A stretch of 64,000 nucleotides of DNA from an uncultured Bacteroidota bacterium (GTDB lineage: Bacteria; Bacteroidota; Bacteroidia; Chitinophagales; Chitinophagaceae), in assembly GCA_963771435.1 (NCBI GenBank), contig CAVYTF010000018.1, positions 88,217 through 152,216 on the forward strand. The letters are read 5' to 3'. The translations under genes were made by a program, and so were the position numbers. A model generated the notes under the pieces. It was not told the DNA's origin. It saw only the letters and a program-made list of their open reading frames with translations, and ran no database searches. Positions 23,897 through 36,420 of the stretch are shown here, in pieces (positions within the stretch are counted from its first letter, which is position 1; every line of letters starts with the position of its first letter).

Positions 23897-24040
23897 AATT
23901 TCTTTTTTATGCTACAAATATATGTATGAAATAATAAGAAAAGGCTCCTAAAACATTCACAACTCACCACGCACCTCCTCACCGTTCACTCCTAACATCT
24001 CTCCATTCTCAATTCTCCATTCTCAATTGACCCTCACTCC

Positions 24041-25604: not shown

Positions 25605-28193
25605 TTACCTCGCCAGCACCATCTTCTTCGTATCGATCAGCTTCCCGTCAATCAATAAACTATATTGATACATACCCGCAGCCATTTCACCCCCGCTGAT
25701 AACCTGTTTCCCATACCCGCTATTGGCAAGCGTAAACGTTTTTAATGTATGCCCTGAAATATCTGTTATCATAAGCGCTGCATTATGAAAATCCTGTGGA
25801 ATATAGTAGCTTATATAAGAACTGCCGTTAAATGGGTTAGGTACATTCTGGTCAAGCCTTGGTTGGTCTGTAATAGTTGTCATTTGCTGGCTGCTTATTG
25901 TTCGTTGCATGTTTGATGTAAAGCTATTGCAGCATTGGCTCATGGCTGACTGCATCTGTGTAATGGTGTTTTTTAGATCACTCATTTGTTGCTGCAATGC
26001 AGTAACAGTGTTTTGCAATGGTTCCACAATATTTTTCAAAGAATCGTTCTCTACGGATAATTCCTGCACTGCTTTTACCAGCGGCACTACAAATTCACTG
26101 TAACGCAGGCTATACAGATCCTGCTCATTCTGTGGCTTTACCACACCGCTGAAATCGTAGTTGATCTTTTCTGCTGCATTTTCTACATCCTGGGCAAGAA
26201 AGCCCGTCATCTGCTTTTTTTCAAGGTCATATTTACCCGGAAAATCTACGTCAGCATTCTTCCCGTTGACTGTTTTACCTGCATACATCATTTGATCTTC
26301 TTTGTGTATATCAAGCTTATAGGTCACCGGCCTCAGCAGGTTAATAAAAGCAAGCCCCGGCACATTCTGTTGAATATTATTCTTTATCCGTCGGTCGCTG
26401 TAGGTGCTGAAGTTTACCTCCCCTCTGATAACGGTAACACTTCCATCGCCGATCTCCACCATATTACTTGAACTTGCACTCGAACCAACATCATACCCAA
26501 GCCCGGTCCAATTAGTTAATGTGGCAGTAGTTGGGTAAGCACGGAATCCAATACCGGTATTATAGTTTCCTGTTGTGTTGGTGGAAAGAGCATTTGCTCC
26601 AATAGCCGTATTATTTCCCCCCGTAGTGTTACTGATCATCGCTTGGTAACCGTCCACAGTATTATCGGCACCTGACGTATTTAAATAAAGAGTTTTACTG
26701 CCAATAGCTGTATTTGCTATTCCTGAATTATTACTATACAAAGCGGAATCACCAACGGCAACCTGGTTGCTGATTGTAAGGCTATTAAATAAAGTTTGTA
26801 CTCCGATCGCCACATTACTATAACCCGTGGTATTGTTGTATAATGAATTGAATCCGCTTGCAGTATTAGTATTTCCCGTAGTGTTTTCGTCGAGAGACCC
26901 ACTGCCATCAGCACTATTGTACATTCCTGTGGTATTATAGGAAAGGGCATCTTCTCCGTTTGCAGTATTATAGCTACCGGTAGTGTTGTTATATAGCGCT
27001 GCAAGTCCATTTGCAGTGTTATTATTCCCCGTGGTGTTATAATAAAGAGCTTCTCCCCCGTTTGCAGTATTGTAACTTCCCGTATTGTTGTTTATAAGGG
27101 CATCTTCTCCATTTGCCGTATTATAACTTCCTGTTGTATTAACAAATAGCGCAGATTCCCCATTTGCTGTATTATAATTTCCTGTAGTGTTGAAAAATAG
27201 CGCAGACTCCCCATTTGCCGTATTATCAATTCCTGTAGAGTTTTCATAAAGGGCACCAAAGCCAGTAGCAGTATTATCATCTCCTGTTGTATTGTAATAA
27301 AGACCTTGATAACCATTTGCAGTATTTTCACTTCCGGTAGTGTTTGAATAAAGCGCCTGGTATCCAGTGGCAATATTATAGTTTCCCGCAGTGTTTGAAT
27401 AAAGCGCCTGGTAACCATTGGCGCTGTTATAAACTCCGATTGTGTTTGAATAAAGAGACTGGTAACCTATAGCCACATTGTACGCTCCAGTTATATTTAA
27501 ATATAATGATTGATAACCATCAGCCGTATTCTGGCCTCCGGTAGTGTTTGAATGAAGTGCATTATATCCATTGGCCGTATTTTGGCTTCCGGTGGTGTTT
27601 GAATATAGTGCAGAATAACCTGTTGCTTGATTACCTGCACCCGTTGTATTGGAATACAGCGCCTCATACCCTACCGCCGTAAGATTGCTCACAGTGCTGT
27701 TAAAGAGCGTACCATACCCAACAGCAGTATTGTTGCTGCCGCTTACATTCGTATAAAGCGATTGGCCGCCATTTGCAAGGTTATAACTGCCCGTCGTGTT
27801 ATAATTTAGCGTTTGGCGCCCGATCCCGGTATTGTATTGCCCCGTCGTGTTGTATTGCAATGTTGTAGCCCCGTTCGCAACGTTAAACGAACCCGTAAGG
27901 CTAACTCCCCCTAATGCAGCATATCCAAGTGCGGTATTTTCGATTGGCGGATTACTGCCTGAAGCGTTTTGCAGGCATAGGTATCCAATGCCCGTATTAT
28001 AATGGCTGCCCGTATAAGTACCCTCAACAATACCTCCCTTCCTGCCGTCAAGAACAAAATTTAATGGAAATGCATTTGTAGTGCCCAAAACATTTCCGCT
28101 AACAGCTGCATTACCTGCCAGGCTCCAGCTCTGTGCAAATACAGCCTGTGTTATTACTAATAACAAGGCTCCGAAGAATACAATTTTTTTCAT
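25605..28193 (-). CDS. T9SS-sorted fibre protein, paralog 1 (NTANG/NTTG repeats + S74 tail-fibre chaperone domain + T9SS CTD)
   Basis: Start at MKKIVFFGALLLVITQAVFA/QSW; the ORF extension to 28271 runs through the upstream gene's terminator. It has 17-aa repeats, then SDRRIKNNIQQNVPGLAFINLLRPVTYKLD...GFLAQDVENAAE...LVKAVQEL (Peptidase S74 signature), a coiled coil, and the CTD LDQNVPNPFNGSS...YQYSLLIDGKLIDTKKMV. Confidence 0.85.
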   Translation of the reverse strand: MKKIVFFGALLLVITQAVFAQSWSLAGNAAVSGNVLGTTNAFPLNFVLDGRKGGIVEGTYTGSHYNTGIGYLCLQNASGSNPPIENTALGYAALGGVSLTGSFNVANGATTLQYNTTGQYNTGIGRQTLNYNTTGSYNLANGGQSLYTNVSGSNNTAVGYGTLFNSTVSNLTAVGYEALYSNTTGAGNQATGYSALYSNTTGSQNTANGYNALHSNTTGGQNTADGYQSLYLNITGAYNVAIGYQSLYSNTIGVYNSANGYQALYSNTAGNYNIATGYQALYSNTTGSENTANGYQGLYYNTTGDDNTATGFGALYENSTGIDNTANGESALFFNTTGNYNTANGESALFVNTTGSYNTANGEDALINNNTGSYNTANGGEALYYNTTGNNNTANGLAALYNNTTGSYNTANGEDALSYNTTGMYNSADGSGSLDENTTGNTNTASGFNSLYNNTTGYSNVAIGVQTLFNSLTISNQVAVGDSALYSNNSGIANTAIGSKTLYLNTSGADNTVDGYQAMISNTTGGNNTAIGANALSTNTTGNYNTGIGFRAYPTTATLTNWTGLGYDVGSSASSSNMVEIGDGSVTVIRGEVNFSTYSDRRIKNNIQQNVPGLAFINLLRPVTYKLDIHKEDQMMYAGKTVNGKNADVDFPGKYDLEKKQMTGFLAQDVENAAEKINYDFSGVVKPQNEQDLYSLRYSEFVVPLVKAVQELSVENDSLKNIVEPLQNTVTALQQQMSDLKNTITQMQSAMSQCCNSFTSNMQRTISSQQMTTITDQPRLDQNVPNPFNGSSYISYYIPQDFHNAALMITDISGHTLKTFTLANSGYGKQVISGGEMAAGMYQYSLLIDGKLIDTKKMVLAR

Positions 28194-28235
28194 GGCTTTT
28201 AATTTTAAAACAAGGTAAGGGATTTTTATTAACGA

Positions 28236-28268
28236 AATAAAAAAAGCCACTCCTTTCAGAATGGCTTT
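28236..28268 (-). terminator. Rho-independent terminator of paralog 2
   Basis: The minus strand reads AAAGCCA-ttctgaaaggag-TGGCTTT followed by a T-run, immediately after the stop of 28303..30819. Confidence 0.7.
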
Positions 28269-28302
28269 CAATTCTCAATTCTCAATTTTCAATTATAACT
28301 TC

Positions 28303-30819
28303 TCAATTTGCCTTCACCATCTTCTTCGTATCGATCAACTTCCCGTCTATCAGCAAAGAATACTGGTACATACCCGCTGCCATTTCAGTGCCGCTGATAA
28401 TTTGCCTTCCATACCCGATGTTAGCAAGAGGATATGTTTTTAATGTATGCCCTGAAATATCAGTAACAATAAGAGCTGCATTGTGAGAACCCTGCGGAAT
28501 ATAATAGCTGACATACGAACTCCCGTTAAACGGGTTAGGCACATTCTGGTCAAGCCTCGGCTGGTCAGTAATTGCAGTTACCTGCTTATCACTTCCCGGC
28601 GCCTGCATAGACGAAGAAAAGCTATTACAGCACTGGCTCATCGCTGATTCTATTTGACTGATTTTTGCATTTACATTATCTAACTGTTGTTGTAGCGCTG
28701 TAACTGTGCTTTGCAATGGTTGCATAATGTTCTTCAACGAGTCTATCTGTTGTTGTTTATCGGTATTCGTAGCGCTCAACTCTTGTACTGCCTTCACCAG
28801 CGGCATCACAAACTCAGCATACCGCAAACCATACAAGTCTTTGCTGTTCTTAGCAGCATCAACGCCACTAAAGTTATAGTTCATTTCTTTTGCAACCTTT
28901 TCTACATCCTGCGCTATAAATCCTGTGTAAACAATTTGCTCTTTTGCACTGCGCGCAGCTAATTTCTGCTGTGTAGGTTGTATGACCTTCCCGTCCTTAT
29001 CTTTATGAACAGGCGGCTGTATTATTCTATCAGCAGCATCAAGGTCAAGGTTGTAAGTTATTGGCTGCAATTGGTTAATGAAAGCCAACCCTGGCACATT
29101 TTGCTGTATATTTTTCTTCACCCTGCCATCGCTTATATTGGTCCAGTTTGCATAGCCACCAATACTGGTCTGTTCGCCATCACCTATCCGTACCTGGTTG
29201 GTTGCAGTAATTATTGCGCCTGAGCCAAAGGAGCTTGCATCAGTAAACCCATCTGCATTTACGTCAGCGCCAAGACCATCCGCCGTGAGATTGACTCCTG
29301 TATAATTGTTTTCCAGGGCACTAGCTCCATTGGCCGTGTTACCACTTCCTGTAGTGTTGGATAAAAGGGCATAGTTCCCGGTTGCAGTATTCTGATAACT
29401 CGTAGTATTGGAGCTAAGGGCGCTACAACCATTTGCAGTATTCTGATAACCTGTAGTGTTAGCATAAAGAGCGTAATAACCGTTTGCAATGTTATTAAAC
29501 CCCGTAGTGTTATACTGAAGGGATTGTTGTCCATTTGCAGTGTTATTACTCCCTGTAGTGTTATAATAAAGGGCTTCAGCTCCATTGGCAGTATTATACT
29601 CCCCCTTAGTGTTATAATAAAGGGCTTCATAACCATTGGCAGTGTTGTCTTCCCCGGTAGTGTCGTAGTAAAGGGCTTTATAGCCATTTGCAGTGTTTTG
29701 AAACCCCGTAGTATTGGAATAAAGGGCATTAACTCCAGTCGCAGTGTTGTAACTTCCACTGGTGTTAGCAAAAAGGGCATACGCTCCATATGCAGCATTA
29801 TCATACCCCGACACATTTGAATAAAGAGATTGATAACCGTTTGCAGTGTTTTCAATTCCTGTGGTGTTGGCAGTAAGGGCTGCATATCCATTGGCAGTGT
29901 TGTAATTCCCGGTAGTGTTCGCAGCAAGTGCGTATGCCCCATTGGCTGCGTTATTTTTCCCTGACGCATTTACATAAAGAGACTGATAACCGTTTGCAGT
30001 GTTGTAACTCCCCGTGGTGTTGGAAGCAAGCGCCTGCATCCCATTGGCGGTATTGTTGCTCCCTGTGGTATTATGCAAAAGGGCAGCTCCCCCATTTGCA
30101 GTGTTACTGCTTCCTGTGGTGTTGAAATAAAGCGCTGTATATCCATTCGCCGTGTTTTCAATTCCCGTAGTGTTGGAAGTAAGCGCTGCATAACCATTTG
30201 CAGTATTGTCCCCCCCTGTTGTATTCAAATAAAGGGATTGATAACCGGTAGCTACATTGCCGGCCCCCGTTGTATTTGAGTACAAAGATTCATACCCCAC
30301 TGCCGTAAGATTGCTCACCGTGCTGTTAAAGAGCGTACCATACCCAACAGCAGTATTGTTGCTTCCGGTCACATTCGTATAAAGGGACTGACCGCCATTT
30401 GCAAGGTTATAACTGCCCGTTGTGTTATAATTAAGCGTTTGGCGCCCGATCCCTGTATTATATTGCCCGGTCGTGTTGTATTGCAATGTTGTAGCTCCGT
30501 TCGCAACGTTAAACGAACCCGTAAGGCTAACTCCCCCTAATGCAGCATATCCAAGTGCAGTATTTTCTATCGGTGGGTTACTGCCTGAAGCGTTTTGCAG
30601 GCACAGGTACCCGATGCCCGTATTATAATGGCTGCCCGTATAAGTACCCTCTACAATACCTCCCTTTCTGCCGTCAAGAACAAAGTTTAATGGAAATGCG
30701 TTGGTCGTCCCTAACACATTACCGCTAACAGCTGCATTGCCTGCCAGGCTCCAGCTTTGTGCATAAACAGTCTGCATTGCTATTAATAGCAGTGCTGCGA
30801 AGAATACAATTTTTCTCAT
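28303..30819 (-). CDS. T9SS-sorted fibre protein, paralog 2
   Basis: Start at MRKIVFFAALLLIAMQTVYA/QSW (ATG 30817-30819). Same architecture as paralog 1. The S74 Ser codon (SDGRVKKNI) is at 29131-29133 and the CTD is about 28306-28554. Confidence 0.85.
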   Translation of the reverse strand: MRKIVFFAALLLIAMQTVYAQSWSLAGNAAVSGNVLGTTNAFPLNFVLDGRKGGIVEGTYTGSHYNTGIGYLCLQNASGSNPPIENTALGYAALGGVSLTGSFNVANGATTLQYNTTGQYNTGIGRQTLNYNTTGSYNLANGGQSLYTNVTGSNNTAVGYGTLFNSTVSNLTAVGYESLYSNTTGAGNVATGYQSLYLNTTGGDNTANGYAALTSNTTGIENTANGYTALYFNTTGSSNTANGGAALLHNTTGSNNTANGMQALASNTTGSYNTANGYQSLYVNASGKNNAANGAYALAANTTGNYNTANGYAALTANTTGIENTANGYQSLYSNVSGYDNAAYGAYALFANTSGSYNTATGVNALYSNTTGFQNTANGYKALYYDTTGEDNTANGYEALYYNTKGEYNTANGAEALYYNTTGSNNTANGQQSLQYNTTGFNNIANGYYALYANTTGYQNTANGCSALSSNTTSYQNTATGNYALLSNTTGSGNTANGASALENNYTGVNLTADGLGADVNADGFTDASSFGSGAIITATNQVRIGDGEQTSIGGYANWTNISDGRVKKNIQQNVPGLAFINQLQPITYNLDLDAADRIIQPPVHKDKDGKVIQPTQQKLAARSAKEQIVYTGFIAQDVEKVAKEMNYNFSGVDAAKNSKDLYGLRYAEFVMPLVKAVQELSATNTDKQQQIDSLKNIMQPLQSTVTALQQQLDNVNAKISQIESAMSQCCNSFSSSMQAPGSDKQVTAITDQPRLDQNVPNPFNGSSYVSYYIPQGSHNAALIVTDISGHTLKTYPLANIGYGRQIISGTEMAAGMYQYSLLIDGKLIDTKKMVKAN

Positions 30820-30862
30820 GGCTTTTAATTTTTGAACAAGGTAGGGGATTTTTATTAACGAA

Positions 30863-30894
30863 ATAAAAAAAGCCACCCTTTCAGAATGGCTTTT
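30863..30894 (-). terminator. Rho-independent terminator of paralog 3
   Basis: AAAAGCCA-ttctgaaaggg-TGGCTTTT plus a T-run on the minus strand. Confidence 0.7.
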
Positions 30895-30927
30895 AATTCT
30901 CAATTCTCAATTTTCAATTATAACTTC

Positions 30928-33648
30928 TCAATTTGCCTTCACCATCTTCTTCGTATCGATCAGCCTCCCATCAATAAGCAAAGAATACTGGTACATTCCT
31001 GCCGCCATCTCGCTCCCGCTTATAACCTGCTTCCCGTATCCGCTGTTAGCAAGCGCAAACGTCTTCAATGTATGCCCCGAAATATCCACAACCATCAACT
31101 GTGCATTATGAAACCCTTGTGGAATATAATAGCTGATATACGAACTCCCGTTAAAAGGGTTCGGCACATTCTGGTCAAGTCTGGGCTGGTCTGTAATAGC
31201 CGTAACCTGTTTATCGCTAACCGGCGCCTGCATAGCCGAAGAGAAACTATTACAACACTGGCTCATAGCCGATTGCATTTGGGAAATAGTATTTTTTAGA
31301 TCGTTTAATTGTTGCTGTTGTGCATCAAGCTGTTCTTGTTGTGTATCAACCCTGGTATTCAAAGCTGTATTAGTTTGTTTCAGCGAATCATTCTTCACAC
31401 TCAACTCCTGCACTGCCTTCACCAGCGGCACCACAAACTCAGCATACCGCAAACCATACAGATCCTTACTATTCTTTGCAGCATCAACGCCGCTAAAATT
31501 GTAATTCATACCCTTTGCTGCTTTCTCTACATCCTGCGCTATAAACCCGGTATAAACAATTTGCTCTTTTGCAGTACGCGCAGCTAATTGTTCCTGTGTT
31601 GGCTGTATAACATTTCCTTTAGCATCTTTATGAACATGAGGCTGCACTATCTTGTCCGCAGCATCAAGGTTAAGATTATAAGTAACTGGTTGCAATTGGT
31701 TAATGAATGCAAGCCCCGGTACATTTTGTTGTATATTTTTCTTTACCCTGCCATCACTTATATTGCTCCAACCTACATAACCGCCAATACTGGTCTGGTC
31801 TTCATCCCCAATTACTGTAGAGTAACTTGCTGTAAGATATGCTTGGTAGCCAAAGGCGCTTGCATCAACAAATCCACCTGCATTTACGTCAGCCTCAAAA
31901 CCCACCGCTGTTAGACTATTCCCTGCAATGTTTGAATAAAGGGCTTCAAGTCCATTTGCAGTGTTATAATACCCCGTAGTGTTTTGAGCAAGGGCTAATT
32001 CCCCGTTTGCAGCATTCTGATAACCCGTAGTGTTGAAAGATAGGGCGCTATTACCATTGGCAGTATTATCACTTCCTGTGGTATTGGCAGATAGGGCGTT
32101 ATAACCATCGGCAGTATTATGCCCACCAATAGTATTTGCATAGAGTGTGAGAACACCATTTGCAGTATTATAAGCTCCTATAGTATTATCCTGAAGGGAT
32201 TGTTGTCCATTCGCAGTGTTATTACTCCCCGTAGTGTTATAATAAAGGGCATCAGCTCCATTGGCAGTATTATACTCCCCCGTAGTGTTATAATAAAGGG
32301 CTTCATACCCATTGGCAGTATTGTTCTCCCCCGTAGTATCGTAGTAAAGGGCTTTATAGCCATTTGCAGTATTTTGAAACCCCGTAGTGTTGAAATAAAG
32401 GGCTTCATAACCATTTGCAGTGTTTTGACCCCCCGTGTTATTATAGTAAAGGGCAGCATACCCGCTTGCAGTATTGGCAGTTCCCGTAGTGTTGAAATAT
32501 AGGGCATATATTCCATTTGCGGTATTATTATTCCCTGTCGTATTAAGATAAAGGGCTTGCATCCCGGTTGCAGTGTTGTTGTTTCCCGTCGTATTAGTAA
32601 AAAGAGCTTTATATCCATTTGCAGTGTTGAAGCTCCCCGTAGTGTTGACAGAAAGGGCATAGGCTCCATTGGCAGCGTTATTGCCTCCCGTGGTGTTGGC
32701 AGAAAGGGCATCATACCCATTTGCAGTGTTGTAACTCCCCGTGGTGTTCGCAGCAAGGGCATACGCTCCATTGGCAGCGTTATCATTCCCTGACGCATTT
32801 GTATAAAGAGATTGATAACCGTTTGCGGTATTGTAATTCCCCGTGGTGTTGAAAGCAAGCGCCTGCATCCCATTGCCAGTATTATTGCTTCCCGTGGTAT
32901 TATGCAAAAGGGCGGATACCCCATTTGCAGTATTGCTGCTTCCCGTAGTGTTGAAATAAAGCGCAGATACCCCATTTGCAGTATTACTGCTTCCGGTAGT
33001 GTTGGCATATAGGGCTAAATAACCATTTGCAGTGTTATCCCCTCCAGTTGTATTCAAATAAAGGGATTGATAACCTGTAGCCACATTACCCGTACCAGTC
33101 GTATTCGAATACAACGATTCATACCCTACCGCCGTAAGATTGCTCACCGTGCTGTTAAAGAGCGTACCATACCCAACAGCAGTATTGTTGCTTCCGGTCA
33201 CATTCGTATAAAGGGACTGCCCGCCATTTGCAAGGTTATAACTACCGGTCGTGTTATAATTAAGCGTTTGGCGCCCGATCCCGGTATTGTATTGCCCGGT
33301 CGTGTTGTATTGCAATGTTGTAGCTCCGTTCGCAACGTTAAACGAACCTGTAAGGCTAACTCCCCCTAATGCAGCATATCCAAGTGCAGTATTTTCTATC
33401 GGTGGGTTACTGCCTGAAGCGTTTTGCAGGCACAGGTACCCGATGCCCGTATTATAATGGCTGCCCGTATAAGTACCCTCTACAATACCTCCCTTCCTTC
33501 CGTCAAGAACAAAGTTTAATGGAAAGGCGTTGGTCGTCCCTAACACATTACCGCTAACAGCCGCATTACCTGTCAGGCTCCAGCTCTGTGCATGCACAGT
33601 CTGCATTGCTATTAATAGCAGTGCTGCGAAGAATACAATTTTTCTCAT
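30928..33648 (-). CDS. T9SS-sorted fibre protein, paralog 3 (longest, ~906 aa)
   Basis: Start at MRKIVFFAALLLIAMQTVHA/QSW (ATG 33646-33648). Same architecture as the other paralogs. Confidence 0.85.
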   Translation of the reverse strand: MRKIVFFAALLLIAMQTVHAQSWSLTGNAAVSGNVLGTTNAFPLNFVLDGRKGGIVEGTYTGSHYNTGIGYLCLQNASGSNPPIENTALGYAALGGVSLTGSFNVANGATTLQYNTTGQYNTGIGRQTLNYNTTGSYNLANGGQSLYTNVTGSNNTAVGYGTLFNSTVSNLTAVGYESLYSNTTGTGNVATGYQSLYLNTTGGDNTANGYLALYANTTGSSNTANGVSALYFNTTGSSNTANGVSALLHNTTGSNNTGNGMQALAFNTTGNYNTANGYQSLYTNASGNDNAANGAYALAANTTGSYNTANGYDALSANTTGGNNAANGAYALSVNTTGSFNTANGYKALFTNTTGNNNTATGMQALYLNTTGNNNTANGIYALYFNTTGTANTASGYAALYYNNTGGQNTANGYEALYFNTTGFQNTANGYKALYYDTTGENNTANGYEALYYNTTGEYNTANGADALYYNTTGSNNTANGQQSLQDNTIGAYNTANGVLTLYANTIGGHNTADGYNALSANTTGSDNTANGNSALSFNTTGYQNAANGELALAQNTTGYYNTANGLEALYSNIAGNSLTAVGFEADVNAGGFVDASAFGYQAYLTASYSTVIGDEDQTSIGGYVGWSNISDGRVKKNIQQNVPGLAFINQLQPVTYNLNLDAADKIVQPHVHKDAKGNVIQPTQEQLAARTAKEQIVYTGFIAQDVEKAAKGMNYNFSGVDAAKNSKDLYGLRYAEFVVPLVKAVQELSVKNDSLKQTNTALNTRVDTQQEQLDAQQQQLNDLKNTISQMQSAMSQCCNSFSSAMQAPVSDKQVTAITDQPRLDQNVPNPFNGSSYISYYIPQGFHNAQLMVVDISGHTLKTFALANSGYGKQVISGSEMAAGMYQYSLLIDGRLIDTKKMVKAN

Positions 33649-33693
33649 GGCTTTTAATTTTTGAACAAGGTAGGGGATTTTTATTAACGAAAT

Positions 33694-33723
33694 AAAAAAA
33701 GCCATCCTTTCAGAATGGCTTTC
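33694..33723 (-). terminator. Rho-independent terminator of paralog 4
   Basis: AAAGCCAT-tctgaaagg-ATGGCTTT plus T7 on the minus strand. Confidence 0.75.
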
Positions 33724-33749
33724 AATTCTCAATTTTCAATTATAACTTC

Positions 33750-36005
33750 TCAATTTGCCTTCACCATCTTCTTCGTATCTATCAGCTTCCCATCAATAAG
33801 CAAAGAATACTGGTACATTCCTGCCGCCATCTCGCTTCCGCTGATAACCTGCTTCCCGTATCCGCTGTTAGCAAGCGCAAACGTCTTCAATGTATGCCCC
33901 GAAATATCCACCACCATCAACTGTGCACTATGAAACCCTTGTGGAATATAATAACTGATATACGAACTCCCGTTAAAAGGATTAGGCACATTCTGGTCAA
34001 GCTTTGGTTGGTCAGAGATATTGCTGACTGCTGACTGCATTCCTGAAGAAAAACTATTGCAGCACTGGCTCATTGCCGATTGCATCTGTGCAACAGTGCT
34101 CTTAAGATCATTTAACTGCTGTTGAAGGGTATCGATCTTTGCATCTTTCACCTCATTTATAGCAGATAACTCCTGCACTGCCTTCACCAGCGGCACCACA
34201 AACTCAGCATACCTCAAACCATACAGATCCTTACTGTTCTTTGCAGCATCAACACCACTAAAGTTATAGCTTACTTTTTGCGCTGCTTTCTCCACATCCT
34301 GTGCTATAAAGCCTGTATAAACAATTTGCTCTTTAGCACTGCGCGCAGCCAATTGTTCCTGTGTTGGCTGTATGGTATTGCCTTTAGCATCTTTATGAAC
34401 AGGCGGTTCTACTATCTTGTCCGCAGCATCAAGGTTAAGATTATAAGTAACTGGTTGCAATTGGTTAATAAATGTCAATCCCGGCACATTTTGTAGTATA
34501 TTCTTCTTCACTCTGCCATCACTTATATTGGTCCAGTTTGCATAACCGCCGATACTGGTGATCTGATTATCCCCAATGCGTACCTGGTAACTTGCTGTGG
34601 CAAGTGCATCGTAGCCAAAAGCGCCGGCATCAGTATAACTGGTATCATTTACATTAGCATTATACCCATCGCCGGTGTTATTACTGCCAGAAGTGTTGTA
34701 ATTAAGCGCGCTACCGCCATTTGCAGTGTTATAAATCCCCCTGGTGTTGAATTCAAGGGCGCCCTCTCCATGGGCAGTATTGTAGCCTCCCGTGGTGTTG
34801 AACTGGAGAGCCCCATTTCCATTGGCAGTATTTGAGTTCCCTGTAGTATTATCATAAAGGGCCTCGTTCCCGTTTGCTGTGTTATAATTCCCCGTGCTAT
34901 TGTAACCAAGAGAGTAGGCCCCTGTTGCGGTATTGTAACCTCCCGTGGTGTTCGTGCCCAGGGAAGACACCCCATTTGCAGTATTTTGAGTTCCTGTGGT
35001 GTTGTAATATAGGGCCTCGTTCCCGTTTGCTGTGTTATTACTTCCCGTAGTGTTGTATGCGAGGGCAGACTCCCCGTTGGCAGTGTTTTCGTTTCCTGTA
35101 GTGTTGTTAACAAGAGCCAGGTGTCCATTTGCAGTGTTATAATTACCCGTGGTATTAGACAAAAGCGCAAAATATCCGTTTCCGGTATTGTAACTCCCCG
35201 TGGTGTTATAATAAAGGGCGCTATACCCATCTGCAGTGTTATCATTTCCCGTGGTGTTGGAATACAGCGATTGATAAGCGGTAGCTGCATTATAACTCCC
35301 CGTGGTATTGAAATAAAGGGTCTGGTAACCGGTAGCTGCATTATAACTCCCCGTTGTGTTGCTATAAAGGGCCTTGTTCCCGTTTGCAGTATTTTGATAG
35401 CCTGTAGTATTAAAATAAAGAGATTGATAACCGGTAGCCACATTCCCTGTACCTGTTGTATTTGAATACAGCGCCTCATACCCCACTGCCGTAAGATTGC
35501 TCACCGTGCTGCTATACAGCGTACCGTACCCAACAGCAGTATTGTTGCTGCCGGTCACATTCGTATAAAGGGACTGACCGCCATTTGCAAGGTTATAACT
35601 GCCCGTCGTGTTATAATTAAGCGTTTGGCGCCCGATCCCGGTATTGTATTGCCCTGTCGTGTTGTATTGCAATGTTGTAGCTCCGTTCGCAACATTAAAC
35701 GAACCCGTAAGGCTAATTCCCCCTAATGCAGCATATCCAAGTGCGGTATTTTCTATCGGTGGGTTACTGCCTGAAGCGTTTTGCAGGCATAGGAACCCGA
35801 TACCCGTATTATAATGGCTGCCTGTATAAGTACCCTCAACAATACCCCCTTTCCTGCCGTCAAGAATAAAGTTTAATGGAAAAGCATTGGTAGTGCCCAA
35901 AACATTACCGCTAACAGCTGCATTGCCTGCCAGGCTCCAGCTTTGTGCATGTGCAGCCTGTATCATAATTAGAAACACCGCTGTAAAGAAGATGTTTTTT
36001 TTCAT
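33750..36005 (-). CDS. T9SS-sorted fibre protein, paralog 4 (shortest, 751 aa)
   Basis: MKKNIFFTAVFLIMIQAAHA/QSW. Same N-terminal module, repeats, S74 signature (SDGRVKKNILQNVPGLTFINQLQPVTYNLN), coiled coil and CTD. Confidence 0.85.
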   Translation of the reverse strand: MKKNIFFTAVFLIMIQAAHAQSWSLAGNAAVSGNVLGTTNAFPLNFILDGRKGGIVEGTYTGSHYNTGIGFLCLQNASGSNPPIENTALGYAALGGISLTGSFNVANGATTLQYNTTGQYNTGIGRQTLNYNTTGSYNLANGGQSLYTNVTGSNNTAVGYGTLYSSTVSNLTAVGYEALYSNTTGTGNVATGYQSLYFNTTGYQNTANGNKALYSNTTGSYNAATGYQTLYFNTTGSYNAATAYQSLYSNTTGNDNTADGYSALYYNTTGSYNTGNGYFALLSNTTGNYNTANGHLALVNNTTGNENTANGESALAYNTTGSNNTANGNEALYYNTTGTQNTANGVSSLGTNTTGGYNTATGAYSLGYNSTGNYNTANGNEALYDNTTGNSNTANGNGALQFNTTGGYNTAHGEGALEFNTRGIYNTANGGSALNYNTSGSNNTGDGYNANVNDTSYTDAGAFGYDALATASYQVRIGDNQITSIGGYANWTNISDGRVKKNILQNVPGLTFINQLQPVTYNLNLDAADKIVEPPVHKDAKGNTIQPTQEQLAARSAKEQIVYTGFIAQDVEKAAQKVSYNFSGVDAAKNSKDLYGLRYAEFVVPLVKAVQELSAINEVKDAKIDTLQQQLNDLKSTVAQMQSAMSQCCNSFSSGMQSAVSNISDQPKLDQNVPNPFNGSSYISYYIPQGFHSAQLMVVDISGHTLKTFALANSGYGKQVISGSEMAAGMYQYSLLIDGKLIDTKKMVKAN

Positions 36006-36176
36006 ATTTAATATTTTTTATAATGGGGAATACAGGATAAGAGAAACATTGCTTTTTTGCAATGCCTTAACAATACTAAGCGCTTTATTACTATGAAACA
36101 AATTTTCTTCTTCGCAATATCTCATAACATAGCGTTCGCATAGGAAGGGCATCGCAGTTAATTCAACCATTAACCA

Positions 36177-36420
36177 TTTTCCTATCGAAGGGTGGGACAC
36201 CCATCGAAATTTTCCTATCGATGGGTGTCCCCACCCATCGAAATTTCCTATCGGTGGCAATTGAGCCTAACCGATCAACCATTCAACTAAATATAATTGA
36301 ACGAGCTTTCCTATCGGTGGGTGTCCCACCCATCGAAATGATTTTTTTGCTTTCTGCGCTTTAGAGCCAATTGAGTCTAACCGGTCAACCATTCAACTAA
36401 ATATAATTGAACGAGCTTTG
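36177..36420. repeat. Cluster of 34-bp palindromic units plus a ~54-bp direct repeat
   Basis: TTCCTATCGATGGGTG-tcc-CACCCATCGAAAT-type hairpin units lie at about 36177, 36211, 36245 (interrupted) and 36307. The direct repeat CAATTGAG(C/T)CTAACCG(A/G)TCAACCATTCAACTAAATATAATTGAACGAGCTTT lies at 36259-36310 and 36368-36419. Confidence 0.85.

Follow-up and report, generated by a model that had tools for sequence, protein, structure and literature searches.

How do the members of a bacterial gene family come to share near-identical ends around centres that differ in length and sequence, and does such a layout betray a device for making variants? This question is raised by positions 25605-36005 of the window (the whole stretch of 64,000 nucleotides (nt) analysed here, G000:C18:88217-152216) from an uncultured Bacteroidota bacterium, where inspection of open reading frames (ORFs) and sequence revealed four intact, head-to-tail fibre genes, all on the minus strand. 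The genes are numbered from g4, the first of the array, to g1, the last; G000 denotes the source assembly (3.42 Mb, 30 contigs, 83% complete), C18, C29 and so on are its contigs, and G001 is a complete, single-contig genome of the same genus. A first-pass annotation had read the array as a built-in diversity generator for a surface structure. Here, our analysis points to a different answer: the array probably reflects ordinary concerted, birth-and-death evolution of a putatively exported, phage-tail-fibre-like family that resembles the mosaic adhesive trimer (MAT) fibres of Bdellovibrio, driven by homologous recombination over evolutionary time. The recombination at the array is a familiar process and gives no sign of a new mechanism.

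The four proteins have the same domain order, namely a putative signal peptide, a conserved N module, 17-residue beta-solenoid repeats, Peptidase_S74 (S74), a coiled coil and a sorting domain of the type IX secretion system (T9SS), referred to below as the C-terminal domain (CTD). The dot-plot and alignment comparison proposed by the first-pass annotation was run as a sliding identity plot, in which the 5' ends were conserved and the centres diverged, while the 3' ends were only partly conserved. The 5' regions, initially put at over 95% identity, are indeed highly similar, but codons 22-177 match at 92.5-96.8% and the signal-peptide codons at 67-95%. The comparable conservation ascribed to the last ~300 base pairs (bp) of each gene applies to g3 and g4, with 96% identity over the CTD, but not to the other pairs, which reach 76-84% (80-82% over the CTD; 76-83% in 100-nt windows over the last ~300 nt). 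The 3' end of one gene, the spacer and the 5' end of the next form one continuous conserved junction block. The non-coding spacers are 95-100% identical, also between contigs, and the three spacers of the array have in common a 12-bp-stem hairpin, a following T7 and a leader of ~50 nt; in the spacer between g2 and g1, 60 nt of leader are 100% identical to the leader of a paralog on another contig (C29a). A terminator and leader of its own had been assigned to each gene, which describes the three spacers but not the two ends of the array, since g4 is without the shared leader and g1 without the shared terminator; the regions upstream of g4 and downstream of g1 differ from the shared spacer. Direct repeats between the four genes are spaced by 2626, 2829 and 2357 nt, in agreement with the 2.3-2.8 kb given earlier.

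The centres are arrays of 51-nt (17-residue) units, which number 29, 27, 31 and 23 in g1, g2, g3 and g4, respectively, and follow the consensus N-T-A-N-G-x-x-A-L-x-x-N-T-T-G-x-x. Unit positions 6, 7, 10, 11, 16 and 17 are variable (entropy of ~2.6-3.4 bits), position 4 is intermediate (2.1 bits) and most others lie at 0.1-1.4 bits. The conserved 5' module does not represent a separate domain, as the repeat array begins already at residue 66, inside it. Between the four genes, units 1-7 are 78-100% identical, mostly 87-100%, with unit 7 the lowest. From unit 8 or 9 onwards, identity drops to the background of unrelated units (62 ± 8% at the nucleotide level) except in g2 and g3, whose cores alone are collinear, with patches of 82-96% identity and four single-unit gaps. 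The earlier descriptions of the cores as differing in both length and sequence, and of the proteins as 751 to about 906 amino acids (aa) long, were thus borne out (Table 1).

Unequal crossover and gene conversion, for which the long direct repeats had been proposed as substrates, have acted at this array, as revealed by a chimeric gene, duplicated junction blocks, nearest relatives that switch along the genes, incongruent module trees and the pairwise homoplasy index (PHI). A three-sequence breakpoint test on g3 was highly significant (chi2=116, permutation p=0.001): g3 is g2-like up to ~nt 1789 (270 of 330 informative sites) and g4-like from there on (122 of 187). In addition, across 884 contiguous nt, the block that runs from the g4 CTD through the spacer into the g3 N module shares 96.8% identity with the block that runs from the g3 CTD into the g2 N module, while each of them reaches only 89% with the g2/g1 junction. 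Judged by these alignments, g3 is a chimera of a g2-like 5' part and a g4-like 3' part; a single unequal crossover in a shorter array, with one g2-like and one g4-like gene as partners, would give such a product.

The exchanges extend beyond the four genes. G000 holds ~22 paralogs, in arrays on C18, C29, C3 and elsewhere, ten of which carry the N module of g1-g4 (type A): besides g1-g4 themselves, C29 has three of these genes, C5 and C9 have one each, and C17 bears a frameshifted copy. An exact tract of 93 nt, covering leader and signal peptide, is shared by g1 and C29b, while the N modules of this pair are only 87% identical. In g1, the leader and signal peptide come closest to C29a and C29b (93-100%; C29a 98-100%), S74 to C29a, the linker to C9 and C5, and the first half of the CTD to C5. 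In g3, the 5' half is nearest to g2, the second half of S74 to C29c (93%), the coiled coil to C29b (88%) and the CTD to g4 (96-97%). Within the array, the longest exact tracts measure 41-146 nt. Maximum-likelihood trees of the three modules disagree with one another, and the approximately unbiased (AU) test rejected a g3+g4 clade for the N module (p=0.02), a g2+g3 clade and monophyly of the array for the CTD (p=0.007 and p=0.0005, respectively), and monophyly of the array for S74 (p=3e-6), the S74 tree grouping g1 with C29a (100/100). The PHI test reached significance in the C-terminal block (p<=0.001) and in the N block of ten genes (p=0.013) but not in g1-g4 alone (p=0.52, 27 informative sites); its signal depends on including the wider family or the C-terminal block.

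Substitution rates provided an estimate of both selection and age. Within the array, the N module displays a nonsynonymous divergence (dN) of 0.003-0.017 and a synonymous divergence (dS) of 0.13-0.38, and, by the resulting dN/dS of 0.01-0.06, it is under strong purifying selection. Compared with other parts of the same gene pairs, the N module has a 2- to 4-fold lower synonymous divergence; between g2 and g3, dS rises from 0.13 in the N module to 0.53 in the core and ~1.0 in S74. In the collinear g2/g3 core, dN/dS is 0.09 at scaffold positions and 0.76 at variable positions. Positive selection on the variable repeat positions was considered and rejected, since dN/dS of 0.47-0.76 does not rise above 1; on these ratios, the variable positions of the g2/g3 core are under relaxed, not positive, selection. 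A dS of 0.13-0.38 in the shared module implies that the last exchanges are old, and the unequal crossover itself must be old as well, since the copies that it left behind now differ at dS ~0.13-0.15. From these estimates, both selection and exchange have shaped the array.

The age of the exchanges bears directly on whether the array is an active, high-frequency generator of fibre variants or copy numbers within the population, comparable to antigenic or phase variation. The substrates for such activity exist, as junction blocks of 89-97% identity lie at a spacing of 2.4-2.8 kb, past events of exactly this kind are visible in the array, and 51-nt repeat cores are prone to gain and loss of units. 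However, the dS of the shared module speaks against any recent exchange, as do the short exact tracts, and adjacent units within one core match at only 63-83%, which indicates that there has been no recent unit amplification. Cassette-type antigenic variation, as in pilE/pilS, vlsE and msp2, relies on one expression site together with promoterless or truncated silent cassettes. Here, each of the four copies is a complete ORF with a start, putative signal peptide and CTD (three with the terminator and three with the leader), so that no silent-cassette system is present and this candidate was rejected. A diversity-generating retroelement was likewise rejected, as no reverse transcriptase (PF00078) was matched in the 83% complete G000 assembly. 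Tyrosine recombinase (PF00589) gave three matches, on C17, C3 (277 kb) and C21, and none on C18 or C29 (serine recombinases were not searched), and shufflon or invertase variation was rejected on the lack of such a recombinase on either array contig. Nothing indicates a programmed or fast-acting generator; the reading of the array as a built-in diversity generator did not hold up, and we consider its present activity as such unlikely.

At the other extreme, the genes could be old tandem duplicates that have exchanged nothing, their flanks being conserved merely by stronger purifying selection than acts on the cores. The very low dN/dS of the N module would suit such a history, and so would the boundary between conserved and variable sequence, which lies near the same repeat unit (7-9) in all ten type A paralogs, as a functional boundary would give. 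Yet selection on the protein leaves unexplained both the 2- to 4-fold lower synonymous divergence of the N module in the same pairs and the near-identity of non-coding spacers, between contigs too; together with the significant PHI and breakpoint tests and the incongruent module trees, this renders a history free of exchange highly improbable. Several points nonetheless weigh against concerted evolution of exported fibres as we propose it. The lower dS of the N module could stem partly from constraints other than conversion, and the AU p-values are optimistic because the clades were picked after the identity tables had been seen. The shared leader contains only an imperfect TAnnTTTG-like word, TACCTTGT, a weak candidate promoter in view of the Bacteroidota -7 consensus TAnnTTTG. 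Export, self-cleavage, trimerisation and surface display are predicted from domain content. Finally, in an assembly of 30 contigs and 83% completeness, exact repeats of 40-146 nt could mislead assembly, and the mosaic might in part be an artefact of a metagenome assembler that joined reads of paralogs or of co-existing strains across them. Against such an artefact, all four frames and their 17-residue registers are intact, the arrays on C18 and C29 sit inside contigs of 187 kb and 159 kb, the pattern of conserved N end and variable core is also found in the complete single-contig G001, and many of the mosaic boundaries fall within diverged stretches, at which no template switch by an assembler is expected. 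We therefore regard an assembly origin as very unlikely and retain concerted evolution by homologous recombination as the best explanation.

Examination of the encoded proteins revealed what kind of product is being shaped. The putative signal peptides, assigned by inspection only, consist of MKK or MRK, a hydrophobic stretch and A-x-A followed by Q. Peptidase_S74 (PF13884) was matched by four of four proteins (30.4-36.2 bits against a cut-off of 22; E 5e-7 to 7e-9), and its putative catalytic Ser-Lys motif, S-D-x-R-x-K, reads SDGRVK in g2-g4 and SDRRIK in g1; residues S495, D496, R498 and K500 (g4 numbering) are invariant across 67 aligned homologues. The ~170-190 residues C-terminal of S74 comprise the coiled coil, a Cys-Cys linker and the T9SS CTD. 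The sorting domain spans the last ~85 residues. When the last 89 aa were scanned alone, TIGR04183 passed its cut-off (24.9 bits against 23), while PF18962 stayed below its own on the T9SS tail (18.3 bits against 27); the modelled fold resembles that of a T9SS substrate's sorting domain in a translocon-bound state, 8glk_D (TM 0.62). T9SS machinery is present in G000, as indicated by matches to SprA_N (E 2e-155, in a 2420-aa frame) and GldM (E 4e-23). Between the coiled coil and the sorting domain, a SAMSQCCNSF motif with two adjacent Cys residues is invariant in all type A paralogs (codons at, e.g., window 28627-28632 in g2), whose proteins are otherwise nearly Cys-free.

In the AlphaFold2 model, the repeat run forms a regular beta-solenoid with pLDDT above 90, and aa 11-60 are modelled at a low pLDDT of 37-54. 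Annotated phage tail fibres match the solenoid and S74 region (aa 66-631) at 35-37% identity, and a fold search with this region returned phage and giant-virus fibre models, including phage S74 fibres. Against the PDB, neither a single protein nor a 67-sequence profile gave a match by sequence; by fold, only the immunoglobulin-like CTD was matched, weakly, and the solenoid was not. A Pfam scan of the N module and core (579 aa) returned no family even at E<=10. YadA-like head or Hep_Hag repeats (PF05658) were rejected on the lack of a Pfam match, the 17-residue period and the lack of an autotransporter anchor.

Within G000, the open frames of the paralogs total ~65 kb, ~1.9% of the 3.4-Mb assembly, and at least two further N types (B and C) occur beside type A. 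The array on C29 carries the same spacer as the g1-g4 array. Two deeply diverged types of neck and S74 were distinguished (dN ~0.43 between them), one of which, type I, is found only in g1 and C29a (window 26169-26560 and G000:C29:13853-16534, respectively), each the last gene of its own array. As g1 and C29a share both this rare neck and the leader, these similarities suggest that the C18 and C29 arrays descend from one segmental duplication. A frameshift close to the end of its short core splits the type A member on C17 (G000:C17:79082-80970) into two overlapping frames of 314 and 315 aa; this reflects either a sequencing error or a pseudogene, the latter being in keeping with birth-and-death turnover.

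Outside G000, thousands of homologues that combine S74 with Por_Secre_tail, under the name 'tail fiber domain-containing protein', occur in Chitinophagaceae and other Bacteroidota; the name is an annotation label and nothing more. Going by how the nearest homologues are named, the source may be a Chitinophagaceae-like member of the Bacteroidota. In species-genome and metagenome contigs, no relative of the N module exceeded ~60% identity, and the protein cluster of g4 has one member, from one contig. G001 has no synteny at the locus (its ppc and peptidyl-prolyl isomerase genes lie 690 kb apart, at 68-76% protein identity), and its arrays have the same layout with an N module of their own, as seen in three near-identical tandem genes starting MKxKLLL...NPSAAKLAKANAQLSNL (G001:C1:954000-970000). 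N type C is clearly also present in G001, so that at least one N type is common to both genomes, which implies that the N types predate the species split. G001 also carries its own genome-wide version of the T9SS sorting domain, and in the sorting-domain tree, 14 CTDs of G000 group together at 100/100, in a clade drawn from N types A, B and C. By this tree, homogenisation or spread of the sorting domain has taken place within G000; co-evolution with the T9SS of the species itself could contribute to the clade. The N modules and the tags appear to have been homogenised separately in each species.

On the explanation that we favour, concerted and birth-and-death evolution, unequal crossover of neighbouring genes would have duplicated the 0.88-kb junction block of 3' end, spacer and 5' end and produced the g2/g4 chimera g3, short gene-conversion tracts would have passed among paralogs, including those of arrays on different contigs, and the cores would have gained and lost whole 51-nt units. 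Purifying selection would hold the N module and the scaffold positions constant while the exposed repeat positions drift. At the protein level, Sec would carry the products over the inner membrane, S74 would aid folding and trimerisation, and the T9SS would move them over the outer membrane by way of the C-terminal tag. Self-cleavage at the conserved Ser could then leave a mature fibre of conserved N module and variable shaft, whose N end would present it on the cell while the distal shaft binds, following the logic of phage tail fibres and Bdellovibrio MATs. By this analogy, we infer a standing repertoire of binding specificities, not a switching device.

An extension of this scheme, which we put forward tentatively and hold to be possible though doubtful, takes the shared N module as a lineage-specific docking adaptor by which ten fibres plug into one common surface anchor. 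S74 cleavage after T9SS export would in that case remove the chaperone, coiled coil and sorting tag, gene conversion would keep variation out of the adaptor and the genome-specific sorting domain as the shafts diversify, and G001 would have evolved its own adaptor. If true, it would place MAT-like, multi-specificity recognition outside the Bdellovibrio phylum and on another secretion route.

The coordinates of the genes and of their parts are collected in Table 1. In choosing the gene starts, longer TTG-initiated ORFs were rejected, as they extend into the spacers; an ATG followed by MKK or MRK and a hydrophobic signal sequence was preferred as plausible.

Table 1. Fibre genes, modules and spacers of the array (positions in the window)
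Feature	Positions	Strand	Remarks
g1 fibre gene	25605-28193	-	862 aa; ATG 28193, stop 25605; last of array; 29 repeat units
g2 fibre gene	28303-30819	-	838 aa; ATG 30819, stop 28303; 27 repeat units
g3 fibre gene	30928-33648	-	906 aa; ATG 33648, stop 30928; 31 repeat units; chimera, as judged by alignment
g4 fibre gene	33750-36005	-	751 aa; ATG 36005, stop 33750; 23 repeat units; first of array
Conserved 5' module of g1	27663-28193	-	signal peptide, N cap, repeat units 1-7
Conserved 5' module of g2	30289-30819	-
Conserved 5' module of g3	33118-33648	-	96.6% identical to g2 module
Conserved 5' module of g4	35475-36005	-
Variable repeat core of g1	26511-27662	-
Variable repeat core of g2	29239-30288	-	collinear with g3 core save four single-unit gaps
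Variable repeat core of g3	31864-33117	-
Variable repeat core of g4	34629-35474	-
Peptidase_S74 of g1	26169-26399	-	type I variant, motif S-D-R-R-I-K
Peptidase_S74 of g2	28885-29133	-	PF13884 match
Peptidase_S74 of g3	31519-31758	-	PF13884 match
Peptidase_S74 of g4	34275-34523	-	putative catalytic Ser495 codon 34521-34523, in S-D-G-R-V-K
T9SS type A sorting domain of g1	25605-25856	-	closest relative is the C5 paralog
T9SS type A sorting domain of g2	28303-28554	-
T9SS type A sorting domain of g3	30928-31179	-
T9SS type A sorting domain of g4	33750-34001	-	96% nt identity to g3 counterpart
Spacer g4 to g3	33649-33749	-	heptamers, terminator hairpin 33697-33723 with T-run, conserved leader
Spacer g3 to g2	30820-30927	-	heptamers, terminator hairpin 30868-30894, leader
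Spacer g2 to g1	28194-28302	-	heptamers, terminator hairpin 28242-28269, leader

The neighbours of the array are housekeeping genes (cyclophilin, gcvH, an extracytoplasmic function (ECF) sigma/anti-sigma pair, ppc and acs), and for this reason a prophage or tailocin setting was rejected; no phage genes were seen in the gene content around the array. Within the repeat cores, same-strand ORFs of 236-276 aa in alternative frames (window 29259-29969, 32178-33008 and 34649-35479) are most likely by-products of the 51-nt periodicity and not genes. The ATTGAGA heptamers and hairpin that had been noted in each spacer are present in all three, but they also lie downstream of many unrelated genes of G000. 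Heptamers of the form AATTGAG or AATGGAG make up ~50 arrays genome-wide, compared to 17 in a reversed-sequence control; 23 of the arrays lie within ~85 nt after the stop of a long frame, and several of those behind unrelated genes are followed by the same GGCCATCCTGAAAGGGGTGGC-type terminator hairpin. The tandem heptamers (window 28270-28305, 30895-30930, 33725-33750 and ~24000-24030; G000:C28:97372, C13:7680 and C30:84915) look like a genome-wide post-stop motif of G000. A sigma-70 promoter scan returned 37 sites, no better than the 30.8 ± 5.2 found in shuffles. In the divergent intergenic region upstream of g4 (window 36176-36340), 33-nt tandem units are arranged around a 10-bp palindrome (TCGATGGGTG...CACCCATCGA), and these palindromic units were flagged by the terminator scan on the plus strand at 36218-36241 and 36314-36336.

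The locus offers a clear, quantified case of the evolution of predicted surface fibres in Bacteroidota, a large family not yet studied by experiment, by way of unequal crossover, conversion between arrays, turnover of repeat units and strong selection on a shared N module; the literature yielded no experimental work that treats S74 and the T9SS together. Should the fibres act as adhesins or recognition devices, the cell would hold a large binding repertoire in which ~2% of its genome is invested. The position of a self-cleaving domain upstream of the export tag further raises the question of the order in which export and cleavage take place.

Concerted evolution by gene conversion is familiar from surface-protein families such as Neisseria opa, Helicobacter hop/bab and Anaplasma msp2. 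With these, the G000 family shares conserved flanks, variable centres, nearest relatives that switch along the gene and modules homogenised within the genome; unlike them, its array has no silent cassettes or single expression site, and its exchanges are old (dS 0.13-0.38). A second comparison is with phage fibres and tailspikes that carry S74 as a C-terminal intramolecular chaperone, such as the K1F endosialidase and the L-shaped tail fibre of T5. The 35-37% identity over aa 66-631, the fold matches and the conserved catalytic motif link g1-g4 to phage tail fibres; both have an N end that is conserved and a distal part that varies, and both show recombinational mosaicism. In contrast to phage fibres, g1-g4 are chromosomal, lie among housekeeping genes, bear a putative Sec signal peptide and a T9SS tag, and belong to a family of ~22 copies per genome.

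The third comparison is with the MAT fibres of Bdellovibrio bacteriovorus, which include an S74 subgroup, e.g. Bd3182 (Caulton et al. 2024, PMC10769870). MATs are called 'mosaic in nature', one of their ends being conserved for retention while diversification affects the other, and the conserved stretch that follows the signal peptide is believed to keep the fibre attached to the cell; Bacteroidota and the T9SS are not mentioned there (PMC10769870). The two families also differ, in that MAT members with S74 terminate in it, whereas g1-g4 continue with a coiled coil and the T9SS sorting domain. All MATs have one beta-rich N domain of ~130 aa, while the 156-aa module of G000 is found in 10 of ~22 paralogs, consists of an N cap and seven solenoid turns, and is one of at least three N types. 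Membership of the MAT family is thus not established, and 'MAT-like' is used here for an apparent analogy. On the side of likeness, both are chromosomal families of ~20 genes that encode phage-like fibres with signal peptides (putative in g1-g4), the region right after the signal peptide is conserved and the remainder variable, and many MAT members carry an S74 chaperone with an SDxxxK motif, as do g1-g4.

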